Shown one piece after another: positions 1 through 45,605 of a DNA stretch of 64,000 nucleotides. A program made the translations under genes and the position numbers. Each line of letters begins with the position of its first letter. Position 1 is the first letter of the stretch. The stretch is from an uncultured bacterium (GTDB lineage: Bacteria > Auribacterota > Auribacteria > Auribacterales > Auribacteraceae). Location: contig CAYVGJ010000002.1 of the NCBI GenBank assembly GCA_964451165.1, positions 97,338 through 161,337 of the forward strand, written 5' to 3'. The notes beneath the pieces were generated by a model, which ran no database searches, was not told where the DNA came from, and saw nothing but the letters and a program-made list of their open reading frames with translations.

Positions 1-348
1 ACAAGCCAGTTGGAAAAAAAGTTAATGGATATGTATTCCAAAGATTATCTTAAGAATCCTTATATTACTGTTTCAGTTTTATCAAGGAGATATTATGTCT
101 TAGGTGAAGTAAAAGCGCCAGGAGCATATCCTATGGTAGGTAACGTTACTGTTTTAACCGCAATAACACAAGCTGGCGGATTTACAGATTATGCCGCTAA
201 AAATAATGTAACTGTTATCCGCAATGTCGGTAATGTGAAAAAGTCAATAACAGTAAATATTGACAAAATTATAAAAACCGGAGATACTAGCAGCGATGTT
301 ATATTACAAGCAGGAGATGTTGTTAATGTCCCGCAAAGCATGTTTTAA
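1..348 (+). CDS. Polysaccharide export protein, Wza-like (SLBB domain), 5'-truncated by the window edge. The track start at 10 is an internal TTG.
   Basis: The motif YYVLGEVKAPGAYPM...LTAITQAGGFTDYAAKNNVTVIR...ILQAGDVVNVP is typical of SLBB/polysaccharide-export (Wza/KpsD) C-terminal domains. The frame is open to position 1. Confidence 0.55.
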   Translation, partial: TSQLEKKLMDMYSKDYLKNPYITVSVLSRRYYVLGEVKAPGAYPMVGNVTVLTAITQAGGFTDYAAKNNVTVIRNVGNVKKSITVNIDKIIKTGDTSSDVILQAGDVVNVPQSMF

Positions 349-380: not shown

Positions 381-2273
381 ATGCAAAATAAACCCTTATT
401 TAGAAATTACGCAAAAAATTTTCATTCGGAAACAAAACTTGAAAAGACATTTAACGCCATATTGATTTTTTTACTTGGTTTTGTGCTTATTTTTACTCCG
501 CTAAGTTTTGGAACCGTCAATGAACCTTCTTTCTATATCGCTCATATTTCGATACTTGGACTCGTTCTTGTCAGTATATTGAAAATGGCATTTATAAGAA
601 AATTCAAATTAATAAAATCATTTACACTTGTTCCTCTGTTTTTATTTGTTGGATATACTGCTGTACGCTATTTTTTTTCCGATAATCCATATTATTCGAG
701 AATGGAATTTTTAAAAATAATTGATTATTCATTAATTTATCTTGTTATTGTAAATAATTTTCAGAGAAAAAAATATTTTTACTCACTCATATTTCTTACA
801 ATTCTTATCGGATTGTTTTTATCATCATTGGGGATAATACAATATTTCAAAGAGGCAAATAAGGTATATGGAATTGGGTTGGCGAATGAAATTGTAGCTG
901 TGCCAAGTGATGGACATCAAATACACGATGCTCAATCATATTTTGGAATAGTAACTAAACCCAAACCGGAACAATATGGTTTTAGAGCAAGTGGAACTTT
1001 TGTTTGTCCAAACCATTTGGCCGGTTATCTTGAGATGATAATACCGCTTGCTCTTGCTATGAGCATGTTAACACGATTTGTTTTCGGATTCAGGATGCTT
1101 ATAGGATACTCATCACTGCTGATTATTGCTGGATGGGTATTGACGTTTTCAAGAGGCGGATGGATTGCGGGAATTGTGATGTTAATAACTTTTATCATAT
1201 TATCATATCTAAGAGGTGAAGCGCGTAGCGAAAATAGATGGATATTACCTATGGTAATAATTATTATAGCGTTAATATCAATCGGTATATTTGTAAAACC
1301 GATTCAAAAGAGATTGTTAGAAATTTCTCCTACCGGTGATGCCAGTTCTGCAAGCAGATTAAAAATATGGTCTGACACAATTCCAATGATTAAAGATAAA
1401 CTTTTCTTTGGTTATGGTCCCGGTGGCTATGAATGGCATTTCCCTCGGTATAAAAGCCATTCAATTAATCGAAAAGTAACATATACCCATAATGATTATT
1501 TAAATGCCCTTGCCGATTACGGTGTCTTCGGAACATTAATAATATTGTTTTTTATTGTGTTGTTGTTTATGAAATCAAGAAAGATTCCTGAATTTTTTGA
1601 ACATCCTGATACTCAAGCATTGATGGTGGGTTGTTTATCTGCCGTTGTCGTTGTTTTGTTCCATGCGTTCTTTGATTTCAATAATCATATATACAGTAAC
1701 GCTCTTTTATTCGTTGTAATATGTGGTATTTACATAAGTGTTGTCAGTAATGTCGAAAATGAAGAAGAGGCATATTGGAAATTTGACAAGTTAAATAATA
1801 ATATATTCATGTTAATTTTTGTAGGGATCATTCTTGTCGGGATAATTATCTCTGGTATTATTCAGGCTGGAAAATTATTTTTATCTGAGGCTTATTTTCA
1901 ACAGGGGTATGCTCTTCAATACCAGATATTGTGGAATGAAGCGTCAAAAAAATATGAAATAGCGCAAAAATACGATCCGAAAAATCCGAATATTTATGGA
2001 AAATTGGCTGAGGTTTTAAGTGCTCAAAATTTATTTAGAATTGGCATCGATAATAATCAAGCGATAAATTATTATGATACAGCTTTAAAATACAACCCTT
2101 ATGAAAGTGATTTTCTTTTTAAAAAGGCGCTTCTTCTAAAACGTGAAAGAAAATTTAAAGAAGCATCGGATGTAATTGGAAAAGCAATTTCACAAGAACC
2201 GACTAATGAATCATATAGAGTGGAATATAAAAAATTAGACATCATTCTGCAGAGAAATAAATCCGCGTTTTAA
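381..2273 (+). CDS. O-antigen ligase (Wzy_C)-like polytopic membrane protein with C-terminal TPR repeats
   Basis: Multiple TM helices. The Wzy_C signature FSRGGWIAGIVM and the following YGPGGYEW...THNDYLNALADYGVFG loop are present. The C-terminal ~130 aa have TPR-like repeats (YFQQGYALQYQ..., AINYYDTALKYNPYESDF...). Confidence 0.6.
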   Translation: MQNKPLFRNYAKNFHSETKLEKTFNAILIFLLGFVLIFTPLSFGTVNEPSFYIAHISILGLVLVSILKMAFIRKFKLIKSFTLVPLFLFVGYTAVRYFFSDNPYYSRMEFLKIIDYSLIYLVIVNNFQRKKYFYSLIFLTILIGLFLSSLGIIQYFKEANKVYGIGLANEIVAVPSDGHQIHDAQSYFGIVTKPKPEQYGFRASGTFVCPNHLAGYLEMIIPLALAMSMLTRFVFGFRMLIGYSSLLIIAGWVLTFSRGGWIAGIVMLITFIILSYLRGEARSENRWILPMVIIIIALISIGIFVKPIQKRLLEISPTGDASSASRLKIWSDTIPMIKDKLFFGYGPGGYEWHFPRYKSHSINRKVTYTHNDYLNALADYGVFGTLIILFFIVLLFMKSRKIPEFFEHPDTQALMVGCLSAVVVVLFHAFFDFNNHIYSNALLFVVICGIYISVVSNVENEEEAYWKFDKLNNNIFMLIFVGIILVGIIISGIIQAGKLFLSEAYFQQGYALQYQILWNEASKKYEIAQKYDPKNPNIYGKLAEVLSAQNLFRIGIDNNQAINYYDTALKYNPYESDFLFKKALLLKRERKFKEASDVIGKAISQEPTNESYRVEYKKLDIILQRNKSAF

Positions 2274-2291: not shown

Positions 2292-3434
2292 ATGAAAACT
2301 CAAAAAATGAAAATTGCCATGATCGGACAAAAAGGTATTCCGGCTATTTATGGCGGTGTGGAGCGACATGTTGAGGAAATTTCGCGCAGGCTTGTCGAAA
2401 AAGGACATGATGTCACTGTTTATAGCCGCCCATACTATATGAAAGAGAATAGTTATAATAGCGATGAATTAAATGGTGTAAAAATAAAAGTTGTTCCAAC
2501 AATAAAAAGCAAACATTTGGACGCAATCGTTCATTGTTTTATATCATCCGTTGACTCAATTTTTAAAAATTATGATATTATTCATTATCATGCGATTGGC
2601 CCATCGACATTATCATTTTTACCGCGGATAAAAAACTCAAAATCCGTTGTTACTGTCCACGGTCTTGATTGGCAGAGAAAAAAATGGAATAAATTCGCTT
2701 CATTATTTTTGCAATTCGGCGAAAAATCCTCATATTATTTTCCAAATAAAACAATTGTTGTATCAAAAACACTTAAAAAGTATTATGACGGGAAATATAA
2801 CGCTGATGTTTCTTATATTCCCAATGGAGTAAATTTGCCGGTTCTAAATAGCCCTGATATTATTAAAAAGAAATATAATCTGGATAAAGATTCATATATT
2901 GTGTTTATAAGCAGGCTGGTACCTGAAAAAGGATGCCATTATTTGATTGAAGCCTATAAGCAAATCAAAACCGATAAAAAACTTTTAATAGTTGGCGGGT
3001 CAAGCCATTCGGACGATTATGTAAAAACAATTAAAGAAATGGCAAGAGATGATAAGCGGATTTTGTTTACCGGGAATGTCTATGGCCAGGAATTAAACGA
3101 ATTATTTTCCAATGCCTATATATTTATACTTCCGTCAGAAATGGAAGGATTGCCTATAGTTATACTTGAAGCGCTTAGTTTCGGTAAATGTGTACTCGCA
3201 AGCGATATATCGGAAAATATGGAGGTAATTGCGCCTTTCGGCAAAGATGAGTATGGATTCAGTTTCGAGAACAAAAATATAAAGAGTCTGAGAGAAAAAA
3301 TAGAATTACTTATAAATAATCCCGAAAATGTTGAGTCCATGTGCTCAAATTCAATCGATTATGTAAAAACAAATTATAACTGGGATTCCGTTGCCGACCA
3401 GACTGAAAAAATATATTTATCTATGATAAAATAA
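2292..3434 (+). CDS. Glycosyltransferase family 4 (GT-B, group 1)
   Basis: The C-terminal motif PSEMEGLPIVILEALSFGKCVLASD is the E-x7-E GT4 signature. An SD-like aaagg precedes the ATG. Confidence 0.7.
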   Translation: MKTQKMKIAMIGQKGIPAIYGGVERHVEEISRRLVEKGHDVTVYSRPYYMKENSYNSDELNGVKIKVVPTIKSKHLDAIVHCFISSVDSIFKNYDIIHYHAIGPSTLSFLPRIKNSKSVVTVHGLDWQRKKWNKFASLFLQFGEKSSYYFPNKTIVVSKTLKKYYDGKYNADVSYIPNGVNLPVLNSPDIIKKKYNLDKDSYIVFISRLVPEKGCHYLIEAYKQIKTDKKLLIVGGSSHSDDYVKTIKEMARDDKRILFTGNVYGQELNELFSNAYIFILPSEMEGLPIVILEALSFGKCVLASDISENMEVIAPFGKDEYGFSFENKNIKSLREKIELLINNPENVESMCSNSIDYVKTNYNWDSVADQTEKIYLSMIK

Positions 3435-3441: not shown

Positions 3442-4461
3442 TCAGATTTCTCTGCCTTTATACATCTTTGTATAATATTGCTGATATTCACCGCTGGTAC
3501 ATTCATTTACCCATTCTTTATGCTCAATATACCATTTTACGGTTTCTTTCAATCCGTCGCTAAAATTGTATGATGGTTCCCAGCCAAGCTCATTTTTGAT
3601 TTTCGATGAATCTATCGCGTATCTAAAATCATGGCCAAGCCTGTCTTTGACAAACTGGATGAGTGTATCGGGTTTAGAAAGGATACTTAGAATTTCTTTT
3701 ACAATATTTATATTTTCCCACTCATTTCCTCCACCGATATTATATATTTCGCCAATTTTACCTTTATGTAATACGCAATCGATAGCGCTACAATGATCCT
3801 TAACGTGAATCCAATCGCGAATATTTTTACCTGTACCGTAAACAGGAAGTTTTTTATCCTGAAGCGCGTTACAAATCATAAGAGGAATAAGTTTTTCGGG
3901 AAATTGATATGACCCATAATTGTTTGAACAACGTGTTATCAGGACAGGTAAACCGAAGGTCTTATAAAATGATCTGGTAATCAGGTCGGCGCTTGTTTTA
4001 CTTGCTGAATAAGGGCTGTTTGGGGAAAGGGGAGTGGATTCAGTGAATTTGCCAGTCGCTCCAAGCGAGCCATAAACTTCATCCGTCGATATTTGAACAA
4101 ATCTTTCAATTCCATATGCTTTTGCCGCTTCAAGCAAAGTAAGGGTACCAGTAACATTGGTTTCAATAAAAACTTCCGAACCCAAAATGCTTCTGTCAAC
4201 ATGCGATTCAGCCGCGAAATTTATAATGGAATCAATTTTATATTCCTTTAAAATGTAGGAAACAAGCTCGAAATTTTTGATATTTCCCTTTATGAAAAAA
4301 TAACGCGGATTCTTCTCGATATCAATAAGATTCAATAAATTACCCGCGTAAGTCAGGTTATCCAGATTTACAACATTATAATCCTTATAATTTTCAAGAA
4401 TAAAGTGAACAAAATTTGAACCGATAAATCCGGCACCGCCAGTGATTAATAAATTATTCAT
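3442..4461 (-). CDS. rfbB: dTDP-glucose 4,6-dehydratase (RmlB/RfbB). The start was moved from the track TTG (4497) to the ATG at 4461, which has a strong SD (AAAAGGAGA).
   Basis: The N-terminus MNNLLITGGAGFIGSNFV has the Rossmann GxxGxxG. The catalytic region ...ISTDEVYG...YSASKTSADL... and the length are typical of RmlB. Confidence 0.85.
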   Translation of the reverse strand: MNNLLITGGAGFIGSNFVHFILENYKDYNVVNLDNLTYAGNLLNLIDIEKNPRYFFIKGNIKNFELVSYILKEYKIDSIINFAAESHVDRSILGSEVFIETNVTGTLTLLEAAKAYGIERFVQISTDEVYGSLGATGKFTESTPLSPNSPYSASKTSADLITRSFYKTFGLPVLITRCSNNYGSYQFPEKLIPLMICNALQDKKLPVYGTGKNIRDWIHVKDHCSAIDCVLHKGKIGEIYNIGGGNEWENINIVKEILSILSKPDTLIQFVKDRLGHDFRYAIDSSKIKNELGWEPSYNFSDGLKETVKWYIEHKEWVNECTSGEYQQYYTKMYKGREI

Positions 4462-4525
4462 TCGAATATCTCCTTTTGATCTGGCAAATTTTACCAAAGG
4501 GAATGTAAAATTTAAACTAAAAATT

Positions 4526-4644: not shown

Positions 4645-5931
4645 ATGAATAACCGTAAAATTTGTGTAGTAGGTTTGGGTTATGTCGGTTTGCCTCTTGC
4701 GGTTGAGTTCGGCAAAAATCAGCGTATAATAGGGTTTGATATAAATGAAAAAAGGATTAAAGCATTACAGAATTATAAAGATTTAACCAACGAAACTTCG
4801 GAAGAAGATTTAAGGGACGCAAAAATTGAATATACCTCTGATCCGAAGAAAATAGCCGAGTCTGATTTTATAATAGTCGCGGTACCAACACCTGTAAATG
4901 AAGCTAAAATTCCTGATTTGACTGCTGTTGAGTCTGCTTCGACTATTGTCGGGAAGAATCTGTCAAAAGGTGCGATTGTAGTTTTTGAAAGCACAGTTTA
5001 CCCGGGAGTTACGGAAAAAATATGTAAACCTATCCTTGAGAACAATTCCGGACTTAAATGCGGTGTCGATTTTAAAATTGGGTATAGCCCTGAAAGAGTA
5101 AACCCTGGTGATAAAGAACATACTATTGACCGGATAATAAAAATTGTATCCGGAATGGATCAAGAAACTCTTGAAATTGTGGCGCAGGTATACGGTATGG
5201 TGGTAAAAAAGGGAATATACAAGGCAGAAAATATTATGACTGCTGAAGCGGCAAAAGTCATAGAAAACATCCAGCGTGATTTAAATATAGCTCTGATGAA
5301 TGAACTGTCCATTATATTTAATAAAATCGGTATTGATACAAAAAGCGTGATCGAAGCAGCCGCCACGAAATGGAATTTTCACAAATATTTCCCGGGTTTG
5401 GTAGGCGGGCATTGTATTGGTGTCGATCCTTATTATTTGACACATCTCGCGCTACAGGTCGGAATTCATCCAAAAGTTATACTTGCCGGAAGGGATACCA
5501 ATGATGGAATGTCAAAATATGTTGCGGAAATGGTGATAAAAGAATTAAATAAAGCGGGATATGTCTTGAAAGACGCAACCGTTCTGGTTATGGGGTTGAC
5601 TTTCAAAGAAAACGTGCCGGATATGAGAAACAGCAGGGCATTTGACGTTATAAGGTATTTAAACGAATATTCCATAAATGTTGTTGCTTGTGATCCATTA
5701 CTCGAAGAAGGAATAATTGAGGGAGAACATCAAAAAGTTGAGAATAAACCGTTTAATAAAATAAAAAGTTTTGATTGCGCTCTTCTTATCAATTCTCATG
5801 ACGCATTTAAAGATATTTCTCTCAATGATTTAAATGAAAAAATGAGCAATAAACCGATTTTGATAGATATAAAAAGTTTCTATTCAAAAGAGGAAGCTCT
5901 TGAAAAAGGTTTCATGTATAAAAATTTATAA
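4645..5931 (+). CDS. Nucleotide-sugar dehydrogenase (UDP-glucose/GDP-mannose dehydrogenase family, TviB/WbpA/CapL-like). The start is placed at the ATG at 4645 (SD aaagggga); the track start at 4639 is a TTG.
   Basis: N-terminal NAD-binding ICVVGLGYVGLPLAVEF. Central catalytic Cys region GLVGGHCIGVDPYYL. C-terminal UDP-binding domain. Confidence 0.75.
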   Translation: MNNRKICVVGLGYVGLPLAVEFGKNQRIIGFDINEKRIKALQNYKDLTNETSEEDLRDAKIEYTSDPKKIAESDFIIVAVPTPVNEAKIPDLTAVESASTIVGKNLSKGAIVVFESTVYPGVTEKICKPILENNSGLKCGVDFKIGYSPERVNPGDKEHTIDRIIKIVSGMDQETLEIVAQVYGMVVKKGIYKAENIMTAEAAKVIENIQRDLNIALMNELSIIFNKIGIDTKSVIEAAATKWNFHKYFPGLVGGHCIGVDPYYLTHLALQVGIHPKVILAGRDTNDGMSKYVAEMVIKELNKAGYVLKDATVLVMGLTFKENVPDMRNSRAFDVIRYLNEYSINVVACDPLLEEGIIEGEHQKVENKPFNKIKSFDCALLINSHDAFKDISLNDLNEKMSNKPILIDIKSFYSKEEALEKGFMYKNL

Positions 5932-7289
5932 TGACATCCAATAATCCGAGAATCATCATAATCGGCGCCGGGCCAACGGGTCTTGGCGCCGCGTACTATT
6001 TGCGCAAAATAAGGTATAATAACTGGTTTATCTATGAAAAAGATAACCATGCCGGTGGTTTATCATCAAGTATAATTGATAACAATGGTTTTACCTGGGA
6101 TCATGGCGGACATGTAATTTTCTCGCATTACAAGTTCTTTGATGAAATAATTGAATTTTCGTGTAAAAAAAATATTTTGTCTCACAATAGATACGCCTTT
6201 GCATATATGTTTGATCGGCTGGTTCCATATCCTGTACAAAACAATATTAGATATTTGCCCGATGCTGTTATTTTGGATTGTTTATTCGGGTTGATAGACA
6301 GAAAATATGAAACAAAGCCTGAAAATTTTAAGCAATGGATCGATTCGGTTTTCGGCAAAGGTTTAGCCGAATATTTTATGTTGCCGTATAACCGCAAAGT
6401 CTGGAGCACGAATCCGGAAGAAATGGGATTCGGCTGGATTGGTGAAAGAGTAAGTGTAATTGATATAAAACATGTGCTCAAAAATATAATTCTAAAACAA
6501 GATGATAATGGATGGGGGCCGAACAGTAAGTTTGTTTTTCCAGAAAAGGGTGGTACTCAGGCAATATTTTCACAGATCGCGTCTCTTGTTAAAGATAACA
6601 TTTCTTTTAAGTCGGAACTTTATAAAATTGATATTAAAAACCGAAAAGTATTTTTTAAATCCGGCAAATCCGATAAATATGATTATTTGATATCTTCTGT
6701 GCCTGTTGATGAATTTGTTAATTATTTGGATGGTAACAATAACATGGACACAATTAAGGAAACTGCCGGAAATTTGGTTTACAACAAAGTAATGGTTACC
6801 GGTATCGGCATTAAAAGAAAGAATAAGCCGGATCGGTCATGGATATACTTTCCGGAACAAAAATTCCCATGGTATAGAGTGACATATTTTTCAAATTATT
6901 CTCCATATAATGTGCCTTCAGATGAATATTTTTCTCTTATGGGAGAGATAAGTTATCCAGCACATTCACAACCGGATGGAGAGACTGATATAATGAAATC
7001 CATTGAATCTTTTGAAAAATGTGCTTTTATTTTAAATAACGATATAAGCCGAATCGAAAGTTTTTATTCAAAACTAATACCAAAAGCTTATCCGGTACCG
7101 ACATTGGAAAGAGACAAAATTTTAAATGAAGTCCAATCGTTTCTTATGTCTAACAACATATTATCACGAGGAAGATTCGGCGGTTGGAAATACGAAGTCG
7201 CGAACATGGATCATTCTGTGATGCAAGGTAAAGAAGCTGTCGATTATATTCTATTTAATAAGTCTGAGGAAACTTATAAATTGACCTGA
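5931..7289 (+). CDS. glf: UDP-galactopyranose mutase homolog of the long (eukaryotic-type) form, FAD-dependent
   Basis: N-terminal FAD fold IIIIGAGPTGLGAAYYL. Motifs that closely resemble fungal/kinetoplastid UGM as I remember it: DHGGHVIFSHYKFFDE, NGWGPNSKFVFPEKGGTQ, SRGRFGGWKYEVANMDHSVMQGKEAVDYI. The start overlaps the upstream stop (TAATG). Confidence 0.55.
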   Translation: MTSNNPRIIIIGAGPTGLGAAYYLRKIRYNNWFIYEKDNHAGGLSSSIIDNNGFTWDHGGHVIFSHYKFFDEIIEFSCKKNILSHNRYAFAYMFDRLVPYPVQNNIRYLPDAVILDCLFGLIDRKYETKPENFKQWIDSVFGKGLAEYFMLPYNRKVWSTNPEEMGFGWIGERVSVIDIKHVLKNIILKQDDNGWGPNSKFVFPEKGGTQAIFSQIASLVKDNISFKSELYKIDIKNRKVFFKSGKSDKYDYLISSVPVDEFVNYLDGNNNMDTIKETAGNLVYNKVMVTGIGIKRKNKPDRSWIYFPEQKFPWYRVTYFSNYSPYNVPSDEYFSLMGEISYPAHSQPDGETDIMKSIESFEKCAFILNNDISRIESFYSKLIPKAYPVPTLERDKILNEVQSFLMSNNILSRGRFGGWKYEVANMDHSVMQGKEAVDYILFNKSEETYKLT

Positions 7290-11826: not shown

Positions 11827-13359
11827 ATGAATATACGGCTGAACAAATACAATATTATAGCATTTTTTGTTTTTTTTATCTCAATTCCGATATTTTGCAT
11901 ACTTCTCGTTAAATATTGGAATTTAACTTTTGATGATTCATTTATTACTTTCAGGTATTCGAAAATGATGGCTCTCGGTTTTGGGCCTAGATTCAATCCA
12001 TCCGGTATTCCTGAAGAAGGATACACTTCATTCCTGTGGATGCTGATTATGGTTGTCCCGCATTTGATTGGTGGCGACGCGATAGTGTTTTCCAAAATTG
12101 TCGGAATACTATTTTTTATATTATCAATGTGTTTCGTTTTTTTACTTATAAAAACGCTAATACCATTTATTCAGGATGATTTGAAAAATCTTTTCGCAAG
12201 TCTGGGAATATTATTGATAATATTATTCCGCGGTAATGTGTTTCATATTGTAACAGGTATGGAAACCTCATTATTCGCTTTTTTATTGGTTTTATTCGCT
12301 TATATCAATATACGTTTTTTAAGAGAAAAAAAACGGAATCTGTCTGTTATCCTATTTATAACAGGATTTTTAATAGGAATTACAAGACCTGAAGGAAACT
12401 TGTATGTTCTTGTTGCATCACTGTCTACTTTCTTCTTTTTGAACAGGCAAGAAAAAATATTCTACATAAAAAATTTCATTTTATTTTATGTATTGCCCGG
12501 TTTAGGGTATTTCTCATGGCGCTGGTGGTATTATGGTAATTTTTTACCGCTTCCTTTTTATATAAAGATAGCAGGGAGGCGAAGTTATTTTGCTGGCTTG
12601 AAAGAAGTCCTGGGATTCCTGAATTATTTTTCGTTTACATTAGTGTTTCTTCTTTTGGGTACTGTAATGAGTTGGAAGAAAACAATACCGGTTTTTATAG
12701 CAATCAGTTCGATGATTTTTTTCTTTATATATCCACGACATATTATGGGATTGGAATGGAGGTTTTTAAATCCTGTTTGTGCGCTTATGATAGTTTTTAT
12801 AATGATAGGTTTAGGCTATATTTATGAGAAAATGTCTGCTTATATCGTATCTAAAAATGTAAGATTGATTCTGATTGTTCTCGTAATTGCTGTTACATGT
12901 TATAGATTTTTGCTACCTTTGCCTATAAGTCTAAAATATGCAAGAGGGTATTCAAGAGGGCTTAAAATGGCTCATATTAAGCTTGGGAAAGTTTTAAACA
13001 AATTGTCTGATAAAAATTTCTCAAAGGTTGTAGCAGTCGGCGATGCCGGTGCGGTTCCTTATTTCTCAATGTGGAAAACAATAGATACTTACGGTCTGAA
13101 TGATGTTTATATCGCAATGACAGGAAACCATAATCCGGATTATATTTTTAGAAAAAAACCGGATATTGTGGTTCTAATTTCTTTTTCTTCGACAGATTTT
13201 ATTCCGCATTTAAAATGGGAACTGGATATTTATACCGAAAGTATTCGCAGGGGATATAGTAAAGTAAAACTGCTCGTTTTCAGTGAACGGAATTATTTCT
13301 TATGGGTAATGGCTGACCCAAACACGGAAATAGGCAGAAAATTATTACAATGGTATTAG
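11827..13359 (+). CDS. Polytopic membrane protein, putative GT-C-fold glycosyltransferase
   Basis: About 12 predicted TM helices. The first extracytoplasmic loop carries DDSFITFRYSKMMALGFG...GIPEEGYTSFLWML, which is reminiscent of the DD-x-Y/F-x-FRYA loop of GT-C arabinosyl/mannosyl-transferase-like proteins. Confidence 0.4.
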   Translation: MNIRLNKYNIIAFFVFFISIPIFCILLVKYWNLTFDDSFITFRYSKMMALGFGPRFNPSGIPEEGYTSFLWMLIMVVPHLIGGDAIVFSKIVGILFFILSMCFVFLLIKTLIPFIQDDLKNLFASLGILLIILFRGNVFHIVTGMETSLFAFLLVLFAYINIRFLREKKRNLSVILFITGFLIGITRPEGNLYVLVASLSTFFFLNRQEKIFYIKNFILFYVLPGLGYFSWRWWYYGNFLPLPFYIKIAGRRSYFAGLKEVLGFLNYFSFTLVFLLLGTVMSWKKTIPVFIAISSMIFFFIYPRHIMGLEWRFLNPVCALMIVFIMIGLGYIYEKMSAYIVSKNVRLILIVLVIAVTCYRFLLPLPISLKYARGYSRGLKMAHIKLGKVLNKLSDKNFSKVVAVGDAGAVPYFSMWKTIDTYGLNDVYIAMTGNHNPDYIFRKKPDIVVLISFSSTDFIPHLKWELDIYTESIRRGYSKVKLLVFSERNYFLWVMADPNTEIGRKLLQWY

Positions 13360-20245: not shown

Positions 20246-21622
20246 TTAATTCAGCTGGTTTGCGGCTAAATTCAGAAGTTTTTTATAATCATTGTGTTCG
20301 CAATAGATTATCACGCAATCATTTTTGTTAAGAGATAATGATAATTGGAAATCGGCATCAACCTTTAAGGATATTTGATTATTTTTATCAAATTCATTAA
20401 TATCGGATCCTTTTATTTTATATTTTATCAATGCCCATTTCAAAAAAGTTTTTGCGAACTCAACAGCATCTTCTCTGGTATCCCATCGTGATATTGAGAT
20501 GTAACCTCGTTTTTCGGGTTTGCCTTTATTCTCGAAAACAATTACAGAATCTCCGTCCCAGCCTTCGGCGGCTTTAACGGCTTCTTCTTTGGGAAGCAAA
20601 AGTTTCAACAAGATTCTGATATTCAGTTCACCCATCACATTCTTGTATATAGGTTTCAGGTTTAAGTCTGAGAATATGTTGTCATTGTCCTGTATTTGCG
20701 GGTAATCCGGTTCATCACGGTTTACAGCGTATTTTTCAAAATGAATTATCTGTTCGGTTGATACCGGCGGATCAAGAAAAACCTGGTTCATTTTTATTTT
20801 TGATTCCGGATCATATAGTTTCGATACAAAATACAAACCTTCGATATATGGAAACAGCATTGATTCCCTGATATATGGAGGAGCTTTATCTAACTCTGCT
20901 TGTTGCATTGCGAAAAACAGGCCGGACAAAATATCGAGCAATATTTCATGGTTTACGTGGTTTAAATAATATTTATCCATGCAAAATGTAGCGTCGCCTT
21001 CTATTAATGCGGTGACTGCCTGTACATGATCATCGTTTTCCAGATTTTCCATACCCATTTTTGAAAGGTTAAAATGTTGATCCTGAATCGCATGAACTAT
21101 TTCATGCGCCAGAAACAAATCTTTTATATTTTTGGTAAAGAATGAACCCGATACAGTAAACAATTCTTTCTCTTTGTAATCGTAAAAGGCGGCAACCTGT
21201 TCACGGTAAACATTAATCAGGATATTTCTAAGGTTGACATCTTTTTCAAGAAAACCGATAGTTTTTAATGCATTTTCCATGTTATGGAATTTATCTTCAG
21301 GGTAAAACTCATTCATTTTTTTTATAATTGTTTCTTTTAACGCGTTCTTATCAATTATGTTGTAATTGATAGGCTTTATTGGGGATAAACCTCTTATCAT
21401 GCTTACATCGGTTTCTATTTTTGAGTATCTCGCAAGCAGTTTTAATTTGCGGTTTTCTTTTTTATAGGAATCTATACTTTTTCTTAATACTTTTTTATCG
21501 CCTTCCGTTTTCGACAGACTTTGCTTTAATCCTTTATTCTCAAAATAAAAGAAAGAACATAAAAAAATTGAAACTCCATATAAGATAAAGTGAACCATAA
21601 ATGTTTTTTTTAGTATTCTCAT
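20246..21622 (-). CDS. Putative membrane-anchored zinc metallopeptidase (gluzincin/peptidase-MA-like)
   Basis: An N-terminal TM helix. HExxH (LAHEIVHAIQDQHF) followed about 25 aa later by ALIEGDATF, a plausible third Glu ligand. No closer family was recognised. Confidence 0.4.
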   Translation of the reverse strand: MRILKKTFMVHFILYGVSIFLCSFFYFENKGLKQSLSKTEGDKKVLRKSIDSYKKENRKLKLLARYSKIETDVSMIRGLSPIKPINYNIIDKNALKETIIKKMNEFYPEDKFHNMENALKTIGFLEKDVNLRNILINVYREQVAAFYDYKEKELFTVSGSFFTKNIKDLFLAHEIVHAIQDQHFNLSKMGMENLENDDHVQAVTALIEGDATFCMDKYYLNHVNHEILLDILSGLFFAMQQAELDKAPPYIRESMLFPYIEGLYFVSKLYDPESKIKMNQVFLDPPVSTEQIIHFEKYAVNRDEPDYPQIQDNDNIFSDLNLKPIYKNVMGELNIRILLKLLLPKEEAVKAAEGWDGDSVIVFENKGKPEKRGYISISRWDTREDAVEFAKTFLKWALIKYKIKGSDINEFDKNNQISLKVDADFQLSLSLNKNDCVIIYCEHNDYKKLLNLAANQLN

Positions 21623-22086: not shown

Positions 22087-22650
22087 TTAATTCGCCAATA
22101 TGCTTTGGGCGATAGAATAATAAAAAGTTTCTTTTTTATCTGCGGGCATATTATCGGCCATAAGAACTGCCGAGTATAATTTATGAGAAAAATTAAGTTT
22201 GCTTAAATAATAGTTCATTTGTCTTGCTGAAAACAAATATCCTCTATATATAAATGCTGTTACCCCTTGAAGCAGGATTCCCGCTACCGTAGATATAATT
22301 ACCAGAACAGTACTTTCAATAATGTAATTCGATACTATTATTCCGCTAATAATCAGGACAAATCCGAAAAAGGATATCAATAAAGACATCCGCAAAGATT
22401 TGAAGGCCAATCTTTTGTTTATGATCGAATATTCTTTTAATTCGGCAATGTAATGCTCATAGGATTTTAAAAAATCGCCTCTATTTCCTTCAATCTGTTT
22501 AATAAATACATCGAGTTCTTTAAGAACATTCTCTTCTTCTTTTTTCGATACTTTTTTACTCATGAAAAATAATGAAAATGTAAAAATAGATGCCAGAACT
22601 AAACTTATTATCAATATCGAAATCAAATTTGTAATGTTGGCGATTTCCAT
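22087..22650 (-). CDS. Hypothetical membrane protein (about 4 TM)
   Basis: ORF with hydrophobic segments. No family was recognised. Confidence 0.35.
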   Translation of the reverse strand: MEIANITNLISILIISLVLASIFTFSLFFMSKKVSKKEEENVLKELDVFIKQIEGNRGDFLKSYEHYIAELKEYSIINKRLAFKSLRMSLLISFFGFVLIISGIIVSNYIIESTVLVIISTVAGILLQGVTAFIYRGYLFSARQMNYYLSKLNFSHKLYSAVLMADNMPADKKETFYYSIAQSILAN

Positions 22651-28172: not shown

Positions 28173-28973
28173 ATGAATATTGTGTCGGCAAGCAGGCGAA
28201 CAGATATACCTGCTTTTTACGCGCAATGGTTTATGGATGGTTTAAAAAGAGGGGCGATCGAGTTTATTCATCCGTATTCAGGGCAACGATTGAATGTATC
28301 TTTAAAACCAAACGACGTTATCGCTTTTGTTTTCTGGTCAAAAAATTTCTGCGGGTTTATCGATCATCTCGAGTGGATCAGAAAAGATTATGCATGCGTA
28401 TTTCATTACACGATAAATGAATATCCTCTTGAAATAGAAGGCAATATACCGCTTCTTACCAGAAGGTTGGATTCGTTTAAAAAAATATCGGATATGTTTT
28501 CGCCTGATAACATTATTTGGCGGTATGATCCTATATTATTAACAAAAAATTTCAATATGGATTATCATCTCGCAAAATTTACTGAAATTTCAGGTATTCT
28601 CAAAGGATACACTAAAAAATGCTACACAAGTTTTGTTCAGCTTTACGGAAAGAATAAGGTAATCCTTAGAAATTCAGGAGTAGACGAAAATGAGTCCCAA
28701 AATACAATAAAACTTGATCTAATTAGCAAACTAAAAGGTATTTGTGAATCAAATACGATGGAATTGCTTAATTGTTGTTATCCTTTGCTCAAAGAAGCGG
28801 GTGTGCCTTCCGGAAGCTGTATAGACAAGAAATTGATAGAAAAAATAACAGGTTTAAACCTTAAAGAAATAAAAAAAGCGCCGACAAGAAAATCGTGCGG
28901 ATGTTATAAAAGTATAGATATTGGGACATATTCCACCTGCAAGGGCAAATGTCTTTACTGTTACGCACGATGA
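28173..28973 (+). CDS. DUF1848-like protein with a C-terminal Cys cluster that includes a CxxxCxxC
   Basis: The N-terminus SASRRTDIPAFYAQWFMDGL...VIAFVFWSKN...IIWRYDPI matches my recollection of DUF1848. The C-terminus is ...CGCYKSIDIGTYSTCKGKCLYCYAR (C-x3-C-x2-C). Confidence 0.5.
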   Translation: MNIVSASRRTDIPAFYAQWFMDGLKRGAIEFIHPYSGQRLNVSLKPNDVIAFVFWSKNFCGFIDHLEWIRKDYACVFHYTINEYPLEIEGNIPLLTRRLDSFKKISDMFSPDNIIWRYDPILLTKNFNMDYHLAKFTEISGILKGYTKKCYTSFVQLYGKNKVILRNSGVDENESQNTIKLDLISKLKGICESNTMELLNCCYPLLKEAGVPSGSCIDKKLIEKITGLNLKEIKKAPTRKSCGCYKSIDIGTYSTCKGKCLYCYAR

Positions 28974-28982
28974 AAGGGAATT

Positions 28983-30044
28983 ATGGCAAAAACAGATTTT
29001 GTTATACCAATTTTTATTCCTCATGATGGTTGCCCATTTCAATGTATTTTCTGCAACCAGAACAGTATAACCGGAACCAACAGTTCACCGGGTGAAAACG
29101 AAGTCAGGAATATAATAGAGAACTATCTTACCACTATTTCCAACAGGTCAAAAAGAGTTTATATCGGTTTTTACGGTGGAAGTTTTACAGGTATAGACAG
29201 GAAACTTCAGGAAAAGTATCTGAGTATTGCTTCACAATATGTAAAAAGCGGAATAATAAATGGAATACGTTTATCAACAAGGCCGGATTTCATTAACGAT
29301 GAAATACTTTCATTTCTAAAAGATCATGGAGTTTCTCAAATTGAGCTTGGAATTCAATCGTTTGATGATGATGTACTGCGAATATCAAAACGAGGTTATA
29401 CATCAATACAAGCGATAGACGCATCTATTCTTATAAGAAGACGAGGCTTTTTGCTTGGTCACCAGATGATGGTTGGTTTACCCGGAGATTCGTGGAACAA
29501 AACAGTTTTGAGCGCGCTTACATCGATAAATTTAAATCCCGATATGGTTCGGGTATATCCATTGCTGGTTATGAAGGATACTCCTCTTGCGCAAATGACA
29601 GACTATAAACCGTTGTCTTTTGATGAAGCGATTGAGCGCGCAAGATTCCTTGTAGAGTTATATGATAAAAATAATATAAAGATTCTCAGAGTAGGATTAC
29701 ATCCTCCAAAAGACGCATCAAATATATTGGATGGCCCATACCACCCGGCATTTAAATTTGTTGTGAAATCACGAATCTGGGGCGCTTTTTTAAGAAAAAT
29801 ATCGGGATGTGAAGGCAGAAATCCAGATCAGATATTTGTGTCCGAGGAAAATTATGATTTTTTGATTGGATATAAAAGCGAAAACACAAAGTTTCTACCT
29901 CCAAAACAAAAAATAATTAAATCTTCATGGATTGAGCCGGATCATCTTTTGGTTAAATTCGGGGATAAATCAAAATTTTTATCCAGGCTGAAGTTCAGAG
30001 ACGATTATTTGTATTTTAAAATATCAGATCATTTATGGGATTAA
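28983..30044 (+). CDS. Radical SAM protein (ELP3/HemN-like superfamily), function unknown
   Basis: A CxxxCxxC near the N-terminus (FIPHDGCPFQCIFCNQ), a GGSFTG glycine-rich SAM motif, and a TIM-barrel-like length (353 aa). Confidence 0.65.
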   Translation: MAKTDFVIPIFIPHDGCPFQCIFCNQNSITGTNSSPGENEVRNIIENYLTTISNRSKRVYIGFYGGSFTGIDRKLQEKYLSIASQYVKSGIINGIRLSTRPDFINDEILSFLKDHGVSQIELGIQSFDDDVLRISKRGYTSIQAIDASILIRRRGFLLGHQMMVGLPGDSWNKTVLSALTSINLNPDMVRVYPLLVMKDTPLAQMTDYKPLSFDEAIERARFLVELYDKNNIKILRVGLHPPKDASNILDGPYHPAFKFVVKSRIWGAFLRKISGCEGRNPDQIFVSEENYDFLIGYKSENTKFLPPKQKIIKSSWIEPDHLLVKFGDKSKFLSRLKFRDDYLYFKISDHLWD

Positions 30045-30048
30045 GGCA

Positions 30049-30783
30049 ATGAAAAACAAAGGTATGGTTCTTGTAAGCAGTGATTTCCCATCAGCGATGA
30101 AGAACTGTCTCGTATCTGATGGGTGGGAGGCTGTCAATGTCCCGTTTTGCGATCAGGTTATGCCTTCAATAGGAGGACATCCGGAACTTCAGGTATTCGT
30201 TATTGATCAACAGGAAATTATCGTTCACCCTGATATTCCTAATTCATTTCTTGAGACAATTAAGAGAAAATTCTCGCGCATTATTGTTGGCAACAAACAT
30301 TTGTCTAAAGAATACCCATATGATATTGCTTATAATGGAAAGATAATAGGAGATACTTTCTTTCATAAACTTGAAAATACCGATCCGATATTGCTAAAAA
30401 GTTTGACTCTTGCGGGTTATGAGTTTGCCGATGTAAATCAGGGTTATAGCGGATGTTCTATACTCAATATAGGAAATGAAGCTTTGATTACAGCAGATGC
30501 AGGGATTGCTCAATCAGCTGATATACTTGGTTTTGATGTTTTGCTGATAACACCTGGATCTATCGATTTACACGGTTTAAACTACGGGTTTATCGGAGGT
30601 GCCTGCGCATGGGATGGTCTCGAGACAGTTTATTTTTGCGGTAACGTAAAACATCATCCTGACGGCGCAAAGATAACCGAATTTATTCATCAATTCGGAT
30701 ACAAGACAGTCAATTTGAGTGAAAACAGATTAACTGATTACGGATCTCTTTTATTTATCGCGAATAATCATAGTATCTTGTAA
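30049..30783 (+). CDS. Hypothetical protein, possibly pentein-fold (amidinotransferase/DDAH/arginine-deiminase-like)
   Basis: The near-C-terminal GFIGGACAWDG resembles the GGG-x-(H)C catalytic Cys motif of pentein enzymes, and GHPELQ lies upstream. This rests on weak motif-level similarity only. Confidence 0.3.
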   Translation: MKNKGMVLVSSDFPSAMKNCLVSDGWEAVNVPFCDQVMPSIGGHPELQVFVIDQQEIIVHPDIPNSFLETIKRKFSRIIVGNKHLSKEYPYDIAYNGKIIGDTFFHKLENTDPILLKSLTLAGYEFADVNQGYSGCSILNIGNEALITADAGIAQSADILGFDVLLITPGSIDLHGLNYGFIGGACAWDGLETVYFCGNVKHHPDGAKITEFIHQFGYKTVNLSENRLTDYGSLLFIANNHSIL

Positions 30784-32795
30784 ATATTGAATCTTTGATT
30801 CGAATACAGCAGTTTGAATCTCTTTAATGTTTCGGGCAAATATATTGATCTTGCCCTGATAGTACTTTTGCCAAGTTCAGTAGGAATACCGTTTTGCTGG
30901 AATAAAGCCGGATAATTATATTCCGCATAAAGAGCATATAATTGAGTACGTGATACATATTTATCAACAAAATATATACCCATGCCGAGATTTTTGCAGT
31001 ATTGATAGAATTTCTCTTCGTCATTTTGAAGAAGTAGCTGACTCATCTCAACAAGCCTTTTATGAACAAGTTTGCTCTCAAGTAGCCCATCGAGAAACGT
31101 AGCGCTTTGCGCGTAAGTTTGGATAACATAACCGTAACTCCAGTAACTGATAACCGGAAGACGATCCGGGTTGAGTTTTTCAAGTTTTATAAGGGCATCC
31201 TCAAGATGGGGGCGTAAATCAAGCCTTAGTTTTGTCATATAAACTCCGGTTTTCCAACCTGATCCGACAATTAAAGTTGTACATAAAACCATTAATGCCG
31301 CGATAGCCATATTCCGTAAAGGAGAATTTTTTAAAAAATTTATTGTGCGATCGACAGATATTGCTCCGGCTAATGCTACAAATATAGAAAGAAGTACTTT
31401 ATTGCGGTAAAACATAAGTGTCAGGAAAAATATTGAAAAGAAAAATACAGCGATAATTAATTCACCAATAGAAATTTTATCTTTTTTGTTTCTGAAAATT
31501 AGTATGGATAAGGGATATAAGAAAATAAATATCCCGCCCCACGAACACATATCCCATTTGAAGATATCTTTTAATGGGACAGAGGAAAGTTCAGCCGTAT
31601 TTATAAAAAGAATATTCTCAATACCGGTGATCTGACCTATACCGAGTTTTAAAAGAAGAACCTTAATAAATGATTCGTAACCTGTAGATAAATGAAGCAT
31701 CGGAATAAATAAGACAAGTATAAACGGAACCATAAGATAAAATGGATCGAATTTGAAGTTTTTCTCTTTATTCCACCACTTTGTTAACAGAGTTGATATT
31801 GCCAATCCTGTAATAAGCATTCCATTGTGAGAGAAGATATAGCGTTGCGAAGATAGGAAATCAAAACCAAGAAAACTTATAGCAAGCCCTCCAAAAAGAA
31901 AAGAAAAGGGGATTACTATGTTGCGATCAGCCCGTTTTAAAAAGACTATCAGTAAAAATATAATGCTGTAAAGAGTTGGGAATAAAAGCGATATTCTCCA
32001 TGTCCCGACAGAAAGCAACATAAAAAATGCTGAAATAATGCTGTAAATATAGCATTTTTTATCATCTTTCTCATCCATAGCTTTTATGAAAAAATAAATA
32101 TTGAATAGAAGGAAAAATACGCCGGGACCTTCATAGCGGTATCTGGTAGCCAATGTCCGTACCAGATTGCCAGGCATTACAGCCGCGAGTGCTGCGCCAA
32201 TAAACGAAATATAATCTTTGCCTGTTATTCTCCGGAGAATAAAATAAATAGGAATCATAGTCATAGCGCACAAAATTGCGTAAAATAGCTCCACAGATCT
32301 CTGAACTGATCCATCTGAAAACACGTGATAAATTTTATAAAATCCTGCACCCAGATAATATAAAACAACAGGGAGGTTTTCCGGAATCGGTTTGCCTTCC
32401 GGATACCATGACATCTTATCAATCGCCGGGACATGTCCTGTTTTTAGAACTTCTTCGGTCATTCTTAAATGAAAAGCGTAATCATAATCCAACATGGTGT
32501 TGGGGTATTGATATATTGGGTACATTCTCCAGTAATACCCGAAATAAAATAACAAAATCAAACCGGCTAGAATAAGGGCAAATTTCAGGTATTTATTTAA
32601 TACGAAAGAACTATCTTTTTTGCTCAGATCAGGCTGGATATCCGCTGTTTTCTCTATAGCTTCGTAATCGGAGATAATCTTTTCTATATATTTTACGTTT
32701 ACGCCAAGTTGTTTAGCAATTGAATTCAAAGATTGCTTTTTATAATTCTCTATAACGTATTTCTTTTGGTTTTCTGAAAGCTGTTTGTCTGTCAT
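30768..32795 (-). CDS. GT-C membrane glycosyltransferase with an STT3/PglB/AglB-like WWDYG-type motif (candidate oligosaccharyltransferase). It has an N-terminal ~60 aa soluble HTH-like segment.
   Basis: About 13 TM helices. Then PVISYWSYGYVIQTYAQSATFLDG; compare WWDYGY-x-I...T-x-VDG in STT3/PglB. A C-terminal ~150 aa soluble domain follows. The N-terminus LNSIAKQLGVNVKYIEKIISDY looks helix-turn-helix. Strong SD AAGGGAAGGA. Confidence 0.45.
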   Translation of the reverse strand: MTDKQLSENQKKYVIENYKKQSLNSIAKQLGVNVKYIEKIISDYEAIEKTADIQPDLSKKDSSFVLNKYLKFALILAGLILLFYFGYYWRMYPIYQYPNTMLDYDYAFHLRMTEEVLKTGHVPAIDKMSWYPEGKPIPENLPVVLYYLGAGFYKIYHVFSDGSVQRSVELFYAILCAMTMIPIYFILRRITGKDYISFIGAALAAVMPGNLVRTLATRYRYEGPGVFFLLFNIYFFIKAMDEKDDKKCYIYSIISAFFMLLSVGTWRISLLFPTLYSIIFLLIVFLKRADRNIVIPFSFLFGGLAISFLGFDFLSSQRYIFSHNGMLITGLAISTLLTKWWNKEKNFKFDPFYLMVPFILVLFIPMLHLSTGYESFIKVLLLKLGIGQITGIENILFINTAELSSVPLKDIFKWDMCSWGGIFIFLYPLSILIFRNKKDKISIGELIIAVFFFSIFFLTLMFYRNKVLLSIFVALAGAISVDRTINFLKNSPLRNMAIAALMVLCTTLIVGSGWKTGVYMTKLRLDLRPHLEDALIKLEKLNPDRLPVISYWSYGYVIQTYAQSATFLDGLLESKLVHKRLVEMSQLLLQNDEEKFYQYCKNLGMGIYFVDKYVSRTQLYALYAEYNYPALFQQNGIPTELGKSTIRARSIYLPETLKRFKLLYSNQRFNIYKIL

Positions 32796-32977
32796 ATATA
32801 TCCTTCCCTTAATTTTTTTATAAAAATGAAATCATAATTTTTTTTTAATTGAAATGCAAGTCAGAATAATTTAACAAAATATCGTGTATGCGGTATCTAT
32901 ATATTAGGTACAGAAATAATTTTATGTTTTAGGGAAATCTGATATTATAAAATAAAAATCATTTTTGTGAGGTGGAA

Positions 32978-34621
32978 ATGAAAAAGAAAGAGCGAATTAT
33001 TAAAATATTTCATACGGTTTCTTCCGATTTAAATGATGAAAAAGATATTGCCAGTGAAATAGTTAAAAAAATAAATAAAGATAGGGCGAAAAGTCTTCAT
33101 TCAAAATTCGAAATAACTTTTTCCAGTATAGATGAGGAATTACCAGCCGGAGATCAGAATACCCAAATTAATAAAATGATTCAGGAATGTGATATATTTA
33201 TTTTCGGGTTATGGAAAAAATGGAATCTTTACGCATGGAAAATATTATCACCGTTTGAAGAAGAATTTGAAATAGCAAGAAATAAATTTCAAGTTCAAGG
33301 TAAGCCACTTGTAATATGTTATTTTAAAGAAATACCTGACGATATGATTTGCGACCCGGGGGAGCAATTGAAAAAGGTTCTGGAATTTAGGACCAATATA
33401 GAATCATCAAAAAAAGTACTTTATTATAATTACGAAAAGGTTACTCAGTTTTCAAGTATGCTTTATGAATTTCTATGGGAATATCTCGATAACAAAAGCT
33501 ATGATGATATTCTTAATGAAGAGAATGCAAAACGGTTGATCGACATTCCCGATGAAATAATACAGAAAATCAATTTATTTCATAAAAAATATATGGAAAC
33601 AGAGTTTACAGGAAAAGGTGAGCTTTCCAAGACATCCATGGAATTTGCTATGGATGCTTTCAGATGTATAAAGGAATATAAATTTACTCTTGCGCAGGAA
33701 TGTTTCATAAAATCGCTCGAAATGGAGGAAAATCCTTATGTACTTGACGCATATGGTTTAATGCTGATTCAACTGGATTATTTCTTTAAAGCTGAAGAAA
33801 AATTTAACCGGTTGTTACAGATATCCAACTCATACGAAGACGGTATGTTGTTAAAATCTTACGCATATAATAATCTCGGTAATATGTACGAGGTTCTGGA
33901 AGATCTCGATAATGCTTCTAAAATGTATAAAAAAGCGCTTGATATTGACTTACAGCTCAAAAGAAAAGAAGGGATCATATCCAATTATAATAATCTCGGT
34001 ATTATCTACAGAAAACAAAATGAATTTGATAAAGCCGAAGCAATGTATAAAAAAGCTCTTGATGCCGATCTCCATACTGAAAGTACACAAGCTACGGCAT
34101 CCGCTTATGGAAATCTCGGCAATATTTATTTGCTGAAAGATGAACTTGATAAAGCCGAAACAATGTATAAAAAAGCGCTTGATATAGATATGAATCTTTG
34201 GTGTAAAGAAGAAATCGTTACCGATTGTTTTAATTTGGGCAATGTGTATACAAAACGCGGTGATTTTTTGAATGCTGAGGAGATGTATGATAAATCGCTG
34301 GAATTAAGTTCGGAGAATTGGATAAAAAAGGAAATAGCGTCAAATTATTGTTACCTGGCGCGAAGATATGGTACAGACGGTAATCTTGATCGGTCTGAAT
34401 CGTTATATAATAAGGCGCTTGGGTTATCGAGGGAACTCGGCAGTAAAAAAGGGATGGCTTCAATTTATCTTAATCTTGGGATTTTATACGAACACAAAGG
34501 GGATTTTGGCAAAACCAAAGAATTTTGGATTAAATCAGAGGAATATTACAATCAGATGGGAAATGAAAAAGAGGTTAATAAATTAAGGACCTGGATCAGG
34601 GATCTGGACATAAATGAATGA
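32978..34621 (+). CDS. DUF4062 (TIR/deoxyribosyltransferase-like Rossmann domain) N-terminal domain fused to TPR_12-type tetratricopeptide repeats. The start is placed at the ATG at 32978; the track begins at a GTG at 32972.
   Basis: The N-terminus IKIFHTVSSDLNDEKDIASEIVKKINKD...FSSIDEELPAGDQNTQINKMIQECDIFIFGLWKKWN...SPFEEEFEIARNKFQVQGKPLVICYFKEIP follows the DUF4062 consensus as I recall it. About 7 40-aa TPR repeats follow (A[EK]xMYKKALDIDL...), visible also as ~120-bp periodic DNA repeats. Confidence 0.5.
   Translation: MKKKERIIKIFHTVSSDLNDEKDIASEIVKKINKDRAKSLHSKFEITFSSIDEELPAGDQNTQINKMIQECDIFIFGLWKKWNLYAWKILSPFEEEFEIARNKFQVQGKPLVICYFKEIPDDMICDPGEQLKKVLEFRTNIESSKKVLYYNYEKVTQFSSMLYEFLWEYLDNKSYDDILNEENAKRLIDIPDEIIQKINLFHKKYMETEFTGKGELSKTSMEFAMDAFRCIKEYKFTLAQECFIKSLEMEENPYVLDAYGLMLIQLDYFFKAEEKFNRLLQISNSYEDGMLLKSYAYNNLGNMYEVLEDLDNASKMYKKALDIDLQLKRKEGIISNYNNLGIIYRKQNEFDKAEAMYKKALDADLHTESTQATASAYGNLGNIYLLKDELDKAETMYKKALDIDMNLWCKEEIVTDCFNLGNVYTKRGDFLNAEEMYDKSLELSSENWIKKEIASNYCYLARRYGTDGNLDRSESLYNKALGLSRELGSKKGMASIYLNLGILYEHKGDFGKTKEFWIKSEEYYNQMGNEKEVNKLRTWIRDLDINE
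33900..34500 (+). repeat. Intragenic ~120-bp periodic nucleotide repeats encoding TPR units (not CRISPR)
   Basis: Near-identical 26-30-nt cores (gataaagccgaa[ag]caatgtataaaaaagc[gt]cttgat...) at about 33922, 34044 and 34164, spaced 120 nt (40 aa) apart inside the TPR ORF. Confidence 0.7.
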
Positions 34622-44404: not shown

Positions 44405-44405
44405 A

Positions 44406-45602: not shown

Positions 45603-45605
45603 AAG

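Follow-up and report, generated by a model that had tools for sequence, protein, structure and literature searches.

A long-form UDP-galactopyranose mutase homologue in a surface-polysaccharide locus of an uncultured Auribacteraceae bacterium

Whether a bacterial surface-polysaccharide locus may draw on a long-form UDP-galactopyranose mutase (UGM) is the question raised by a 64,000-nucleotide stretch of DNA from an uncultured bacterium of the Auribacteraceae (contig CAYVGJ010000002.1; the whole stretch analysed is referred to here as the window). Reviews describe a strict split between short prokaryotic UGMs (Glf) and long eukaryotic ones, with 14–18% identity between the two classes (PMC3624792). 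A preliminary description of the window had nevertheless proposed that one of its open reading frames (ORFs) encodes a long-form ("eukaryotic-type") UGM homologue. We recovered this forward-strand ORF of 452 amino acids (aa) exactly as claimed, and all three motif blocks that had been quoted for it are present in its translation (HVIFSHYKFFDE, WGPNSKFVFPEKGGT and SRGRFGGWKYEVANMDHSVMQGKEAVDYI), as is an N-terminal Rossmann GxGxxG motif for binding flavin adenine dinucleotide (FAD) at residues 12–17 (IIIIGAGPTGLGAA; G12, G14 and G17). By analogy with characterised enzymes, the gene probably encodes a functional FAD-dependent UGM of the long-form family, which also includes those of fungi, kinetoplastids and nematodes, a reading to which we assign a probability of roughly 0.78.

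Family assignment and active site

There is strong support for regarding the protein as a homologue of long-form, eukaryote-type UGMs and not as a generic amine oxidase or protoporphyrinogen oxidase (PPO). In a phmmer search against all Protein Data Bank (PDB) sequences, the Trypanosoma cruzi enzyme (TcUGM; 4dsg) matched query residues 5–448 at E=1.4e-109 and the Aspergillus fumigatus entries (AfUGM) matched at E~2e-92, with identities of 42% and 36–37%, respectively, whereas short bacterial UGMs (5eqf, 4xgk and 5br7; 388–393 aa) reached just E~0.005 over the N-terminal 170 residues only; the best match outside the UGMs had E=8e-9. An AlphaFold2 model built from an alignment with 43 homologues (predicted local distance difference test, 92.2; predicted template modelling score, 0.90) was compared with the PDB using Foldseek, and the best 34 matches were all TcUGM or AfUGM (template modelling (TM) scores of 0.89–0.94). 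On TcUGM 4dsh, the model superposes with a TM-score of 0.93 when normalised to the query and 0.91 when normalised to the target, at a root-mean-square deviation of 1.9 Å and 42% identity; the short DrUGM (3hdq and 3mj4) scores 0.62–0.65 (query-normalised), and the PPOs rank after the UGMs (E~1e-24, 12–15% identity). The three domains of the long-form fold and its secondary-structure elements absent from short Glf are all present in the predicted model. The similarity to long-form UGMs that the preliminary description had drawn from motifs is borne out, and the outcome that it had named as speaking against itself, top matches to generic amine oxidases or PPOs without UGM residues, did not arise.

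Comparison with the solved enzymes places the query more precisely. TcUGM is colinear with it over 444 of its 452 residues, with the active-site blocks and the Gly-Gly-His loop aligning directly; the query differs in being bacterial, in standing as the last cistron beside a UDP-N-acetylhexosamine (UDP-HexNAc) dehydrogenase gene, in being about 30 aa shorter and in being known here from sequence and predicted fold. Eukaryotic UGMs measure 480–510 aa, and the query is shorter because it has neither the AfUGM insert at 341–359 nor the C-terminal tail (about 35 residues in AfUGM). It nonetheless shares with AfUGM the residues that set eukaryotic UGMs apart from short bacterial ones (F66, R91, N163, P206, N207, W315, Y317 and N457 in AfUGM numbering). 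With the short Glf proteins of E. coli, K. pneumoniae, M. tuberculosis, D. radiodurans and C. diphtheriae (PF03275), the query has in common the core fold, the two arginines, the tyrosines, the histidine, a place in a bacterial surface-glycan locus and, by analogy, the reaction and its flavin-N5 mechanism; it is set apart from them by an identity of only 16%, and it is 60–80 aa longer, carrying the additional elements of the long form.

Profile libraries are less specific. Pfam returned two generic domains, NAD_binding_8 (E=3e-11) and Amino_oxidase, and did not find the GLF domain (PF03275) at E<=0.01. No NCBIfam model claims the protein: PRK07208, named "hypothetical", fell below threshold and PPO models matched weakly, the matches to TIGR00562 (30 bits, cut-off 98) and PRK11883 (25 bits, cut-off 560) covering the N-terminal FAD motif only.

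To evaluate the active site, the residue lists compiled for AfUGM (Table 2 of PMC3322874 and Table 3 of PMC3624792) were mapped onto the query through an HMMER alignment; the AfUGM numbering used is validated by the correct recovery of every listed residue type. Of the 20 residues that Table 2 of PMC3322874 lists, 19 are identical in the query (H63, F66, R91, F158, M159, Y162, N163, W167, R182, P206, N207, W315, Y317, R327, E373, Y419, R447, Y453 and N457), the sole change being Q458 to Met, which is the state of all short bacterial UGMs. H68, Y104, Q107 and Y334 are also conserved, and the remaining differences from AfUGM in the site are G456A and F106V, the contact reported for F106 being a hydrogen bond to uracil. 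The preliminary description had singled out the arginines and tyrosines that bind UDP-galactopyranose (UDP-Galp) as a point to check, and R182, R327, R447, Y317, Y419 and Y453 are all identical. The AfUGM loop G61-G62-H63, a Gly-Gly-His histidine loop described as unique to eukaryotic UGMs (PMC3624792), corresponds to G59-G60-H61 in the query; in the query's own numbering, the other key residues are R173 and R316 (catalytic/diphosphate), Y306, Y387, Y421, R415 and N425. Across 43 prokaryotic homologues (43–70% identity), conservation at the mapped positions is complete or reaches at least 90%, G59 and H61 of the loop being invariant and G60 at least 90% conserved. Relative to positions conserved across the family, the clade of the query is distinguished by two substitutions only, G219Q and F325W (AfUGM numbering), neither of which is among the listed sugar contacts.

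Distribution, annotation and inheritance

A search of 5.8 billion proteins gave 5819 matches at E<=1e-10 among 8000 scored candidates. The best 120 matches (44–70% identity) come from metagenome-assembled genomes (MAGs) of Auribacterota, Omnitrophota, Desulfobacterota, Actinomycetota and other groups, including two archaeal MAGs (Promethearchaeota and Nitrososphaerota). When one genome per species was scanned, at least 595 GTDB species from more than 10 phyla were found to encode a relative, with Geomonas sp. Red32 and strain IMCC39146 among the cultured carriers, and 1.84 billion representatives at 50% identity, searched exhaustively with HMMER, yielded 925 clusters at E<=1e-30. Given these numbers, it was misleading to frame the gene, as the preliminary description had done, as a representative of an enzyme class of eukaryotic pathogens, with the rarity that this implies. 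TcUGM itself shares 46% identity with the Aspergillus representative and 46–48% with several bacterial members, so that "eukaryotic-type" is a misnomer in terms of distance and the bacterial copy is not exceptional. Family members would surface in any BLAST search of AfUGM against nr.

The names under which these proteins are deposited obscure this distribution. Among the best 120 matches, one alone is named as a UGM, and the labels otherwise read "protoporphyrinogen oxidase", "amine oxidase", "NAD(P)-binding protein" or "FAD-dependent oxidoreductase". Even the fungal UGMs that make up the Aspergillus/Penicillium cluster are labelled "protoporphyrinogen oxidase" by JGI or "Amine oxidase domain-containing protein" by UniRef, which identifies the oxidase label as an annotation artefact; the mislabelling of long-form UGMs is systematic and extends beyond prokaryotes.

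The prokaryotic long-form homologues, which include those of Ca. Auribacter fodinae (RJP61331.1), Desulfonatronovibrio hydrogenovorans, Geomonas sp. Red32 and MAGs of Omnitrophota, Acidobacteriota, Actinomycetota, Promethearchaeota and Nitrososphaerota, resemble the query in their identity of 43–70%, their invariant active site and their glycan-locus context. In 80 other species, the gene directly downstream encodes a family 2 glycosyltransferase (GT2) in 23 cases, and a Polysacc_synt flippase and a family 9 glycosyltransferase (GT9) accompany the homologue in 15 and 10 of the 80, respectively; D. hydrogenovorans and an Asgard MAG likewise carry it in a GT2-rich context. Coupling to a dehydrogenase gene and an exopolysaccharide-export locus are, in contrast, specific to the clade of the query (adjacency to a dehydrogenase also occurs in Geomonas), whereas most other homologues pair with a GT2. 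Sulfotransferases lie near the homologue in 16 of the 80 species and a bifunctional ATP-sulfurylase/adenylylsulfate kinase in 9; such neighbourhoods occur in many genomes of Acidobacteriota/Terriglobia (loci L011, L018, L025, L029, L033, L037, L055, L056 and others), which hints at sulfated, galactofuranose (Galf)-containing exopolysaccharides in Acidobacteriota carriers.

Within the query's own clade, the order of the locus is kept in four lineages: a contig of the same species, a relative at 70% identity, a member of Ca. Auribacterota (59%) and an unclassified bacterium (58%). It runs from a candidate outer-membrane β-barrel protein through a Wzz/GNVR tyrosine kinase, Poly_export, Wzy_C-TPR and a family 4 glycosyltransferase (GT4) to rfbB (in reverse orientation), the dehydrogenase and the mutase, after which housekeeping genes follow (prmA, argS and obg). 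Adjacency of dehydrogenase and mutase was seen only in this Auribacterota-like clade (L001–L006 and L088) and in one Geomonas (L023); the coupling is therefore lineage-specific, and the idea that the pairing is a trait of the whole family was rejected. We estimated a neighbour-joining tree of 167 sequences with 100 replicates, which is unrooted and has deep branches without support. With a bootstrap of 100, this tree groups the query with Ca. Auribacter fodinae and four relatives from metagenomes, while the kinetoplastid and Aspergillus sequences mostly form a separate small clade that excludes the query in 96 of 100 replicates; the exact 14-member clade containing the eukaryotes has 0% bootstrap. 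The mutase is part of a stable, vertically inherited chromosomal locus and is not a recent import.

The top match among the 50%-identity representatives is a protein of Carpediemonas membranifera (KAG9393200.1; 1551 aa) with two UGM-like stretches and 643 bits in total, an architecture that resembles a tandem or a fusion of UGMs; the organism is a free-living relative of diplomonads. Given that the prokaryotic long forms are diverse, are spread over many phyla and resemble kinetoplastid UGM as closely as the fungal enzyme does, eukaryotes might have acquired their virulence-linked long-form UGM from bacteria. A literature search for a study of the origin of long-form UGM returned nothing on point; the papers on horizontal gene transfer in tunicates concern the short GLF type.

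The locus and the rest of the window

That the mutase belongs to a surface-polysaccharide locus is strongly supported. The neighbours listed in the preliminary description (rfbB, a GT4, an O-antigen-ligase-like protein and a Wza-like exporter) are all as stated (Table 1), and the translational coupling that it proposed is visible as a TAATG overlap, in which the TAA stop codon of the nucleotide-sugar dehydrogenase gene (5929–5931) shares its last A with the ATG of the mutase gene. The dehydrogenase scores 443 bits against the TviB model, below the equivalog cut-off of 592, and 394 bits against TIGR03026, above the cut-off. Its start is most likely the ATG given in Table 1 and not the TTG at 4639 of the ORF list; a likely ribosome-binding site, AAAGGGG, lies 8 nt upstream of this ATG, and gene calls of 428 aa in related contigs agree.

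The gene rfbB is transcribed divergently from the dehydrogenase–mutase pair. The exopolysaccharide set within the window comprises the exporter, the Wzy_C protein and a single GT4; the exporter, cut here by the window edge, is 197 aa long in a contig of the same species, where a Wzz/GNVR tyrosine-kinase co-polymerase is encoded just upstream. Directly downstream of the mutase, the locus ends at the convergent housekeeping genes nusB, ribH and ribBA. Neither a flippase nor an initiating transferase was found in the mutase locus, a Bac_transf gene lying 38 kb away, and scans for promoters and terminators around the dehydrogenase–mutase pair gave nothing above the shuffled expectation.

Table 1 Features of the mutase locus and of the rest of the window (positions within the window).
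Feature	Position	Strand	Details
Poly_export/SLBB (Wza-like) exporter, 3′ part	1–348	+	Cut by window edge; TIGR03027 E=1.3e-24
Wzy_C (O-antigen polymerase/ligase family) membrane protein with C-terminal TPR	381–2273	+	PF04932 E=2.4e-25
GT4-family glycosyltransferase	2292–3434	+	Sole glycosyltransferase in locus
rfbB/rmlB, dTDP-glucose 4,6-dehydratase	3442–4497	-	TIGR01181 482 bits, cut-off 365
Nucleotide-sugar 6-dehydrogenase, UDP-N-acetylhexosamine subclass (TviB/WbpO/Cap5O-like)	4645–5931	+	428 aa
Long-form ("eukaryotic-type") UGM homologue	5931–7289	+	ATG start, 452 aa; from sequence, residue mapping and AlphaFold2 model
ORF without Pfam match	11827–13359	+	510 aa
ORF without Pfam match	20246–21622	-	458 aa
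ORF without Pfam match	22087–22650	-	187 aa
Three genes: DUF1848, radical SAM with Radical_SAM_C, DUF6873	28173–30783	+	DUF1848 E=6e-83; DUF6873 E=3e-66
Membrane protein, STT3/PglB-type oligosaccharyltransferase N-terminal domain	30768–32795	-	675 aa; PF02516 E=5.7e-21
Large TPR protein	32972–34621		Adjoins STT3/PglB-type protein
Second glycan operon, lipopolysaccharide-core type	37222–49049	+	11 genes
Bac_transf initiating phosphoglycosyl transferase	45606–47027		In second glycan operon
GT2	47029–47973		In second glycan operon
ORF without Pfam match	50962–52395	+	477 aa

Other parts of the window also bear on glycan synthesis. The STT3/PglB-type protein suggests protein N-glycosylation or a related transfer of a lipid-linked glycan. 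The second glycan operon encodes, in addition to the Bac_transf and GT2 proteins, a B12-binding radical SAM protein, a GT9 heptosyltransferase, a PfkB kinase with a separate cytidylyltransferase-like protein (a split HldE), two kinases of the Kdo/WaaP family, a GT4 and another GT9. Its GT2 was considered as kin of the GT2 that is linked to the mutase in 23 genomes and was rejected, given a similarity that is generic and N-terminal only (31% over 108 aa); its PDB matches are generic as well. Among the ORFs without a Pfam match, the 510-aa one keeps its position in the related contigs L001 (from the same species) and L002, and L005 and L088 have a 455–463-aa gene with DUF8575 at the corresponding position.

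Proposed function and alternative explanations

The likely function of the enzyme, by analogy, is the conversion of UDP-Galp into UDP-galactofuranose (UDP-Galf) for use in a surface glycan, with substrate, activity and Galf incorporation all following from comparison with its relatives. UGMs have been described to work through nucleophilic attack by N5 of the reduced flavin (PMC3624792, PMC12369002). In the query, N5 of reduced FAD would attack C1 of UDP-Galp and displace UDP; a flavin-iminium intermediate would then allow the ring to open and to reclose through O4, and re-attack by UDP would release UDP-Galf. R316 and R173 (R327 and R182 in AfUGM) would position the diphosphate and the sugar, Y306, Y387 and Y421 would hold the phosphates, and the G59-G60-H61 loop would stabilise the reduced flavin. 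Co-translated with the UDP-HexNAc 6-dehydrogenase, the mutase would form the final cistron of an exopolysaccharide locus on the chromosome, one of the Wzy/Wza/tyrosine-kinase type, and the pair would thus supply UDP-Galf and a UDP-HexNAc uronic acid for the surface polysaccharide.

Several observations weigh against this reading. The Q458 to Met change replaces a residue which, in AfUGM, forms a hydrogen bond to the isoalloxazine, although short bacterial UGMs all have Met there. Neither GalE, which would supply UDP-Galp, nor a recognisable Galf-transferase nor a flippase was found in the locus or in the rest of the window, and no Galf-transferase can be assigned there. Neither a description nor a biochemical characterisation of a prokaryotic long-form UGM was found in the searchable literature, which leaves key older papers outside its reach and an earlier mention possible, and activity is consequently extrapolated across 37–42% identity. 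In addition, the UDP-HexNAc dehydrogenase so closely coupled to the mutase, and the adjacent rfbB, leave room for another galacto-configured nucleotide sugar as the substrate.

One may postulate a scenario in which fold and flavin mechanism are the same but the physiological substrate is such a sugar, made by the neighbouring enzymes, or in which the enzyme is bifunctional. The substrate might be UDP-GalNAc or UDP-GalNAcA (from the dehydrogenase and a 4-epimerase), dTDP- or UDP-D-fucopyranose (downstream of rfbB) or UDP-L-arabinopyranose. Conservation of the stop–start overlap across the clade and recurrence of the pair in Geomonas would fit this scenario, as would the neighbouring rfbB and the lack of GalE in the window, and there are precedents: the UGM homologue HS41.17 is a CDP-D-fucopyranose/6-deoxy-L-altropyranose mutase (PMC12369002), and a bifunctional C. 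jejuni mutase is known to us as cited in that paper. The AfUGM contacts to the uracil, diphosphate and galactose of UDP-Galp are kept, however, with F106 to V as the sole side-chain change, and they are equally invariant in about 75 homologues that have no dehydrogenase neighbour; the only clade-specific substitutions lie away from the listed sugar contacts, a Fcf1-type 4-reductase is not present, and rfbB is on the opposite strand. A different physiological substrate thus appears unlikely, although the context gives it some plausibility. A more specific version, in which the coupled pair forms a two-step route to an undescribed furanose uronic nucleotide sugar, e.g., UDP-N-acetylgalactofuranosaminuronic acid or UDP-galactofuranuronic acid, is speculative and distinctly doubtful; if true, the mutases of this clade would have a substrate range beyond UDP-Gal.

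Two further explanations would dissociate the gene from UGM biology or from bacteria altogether. The Pfam and NCBIfam results, together with the source names of most homologues, would suit a redox flavoprotein (a protoporphyrinogen or coproporphyrinogen oxidase, an amine oxidase or a generic FAD-dependent oxidoreductase) unrelated to furanose synthesis; yet structures of PPOs and amine oxidases match in sequence only at E=1e-4 to 8e-9 and in fold with 12–17% identity and TM-scores of 0.64–0.79, against E=1e-109 and 0.93 for UGMs, the complete set of UGM substrate-binding residues is conserved, the context is one of glycan and not haem synthesis, and the fungal UGMs bear the same oxidase labels, such that we regard a redox role as very improbable. 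A recent transfer from a eukaryote, or eukaryotic contamination of the metagenome bin, is scarcely credible. It would account for the fact that the best characterised relatives are all eukaryotic and that Carpediemonas provides the top 50%-identity representative, but the gene has a G+C content of about 35%, the same as its flanking DNA, overlaps a bacterial dehydrogenase gene and sits between an exopolysaccharide-export module and nusB-ribH-ribBA, in an arrangement kept in lineages down to 58% identity, Ca. Auribacter fodinae included. These features and the neighbour-joining tree, in which the query falls within a syntenic, vertically inherited bacterial clade, effectively refute such a recent eukaryotic source.

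We therefore retain the reading of the gene as a functional long-form UGM, a new bacterial member of a known enzyme family and an ordinary one among environmental bacteria. The result is a confident functional re-annotation that introduces no new biological principle, and its main value lies in the annotation gap that it exposes: the long UGM class has a large and diverse prokaryotic membership, cultured Geomonas and Desulfonatronovibrio included; almost all of it is wrongly labelled protoporphyrinogen or amine oxidase, and the models of Pfam (GLF) and NCBIfam miss it. The interest in UGM as a drug target stems from the lack of Galf in mammals, and soluble bacterial orthologues could be tractable models for the eukaryotic enzymes. 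The prokaryotic long-form sequences also make the origin of eukaryotic UGM approachable, and glycans that contain Galf have probably been predicted too rarely in Acidobacteriota, Desulfobacterota, Planctomycetota, Omnitrophota, Auribacterota and some archaea.

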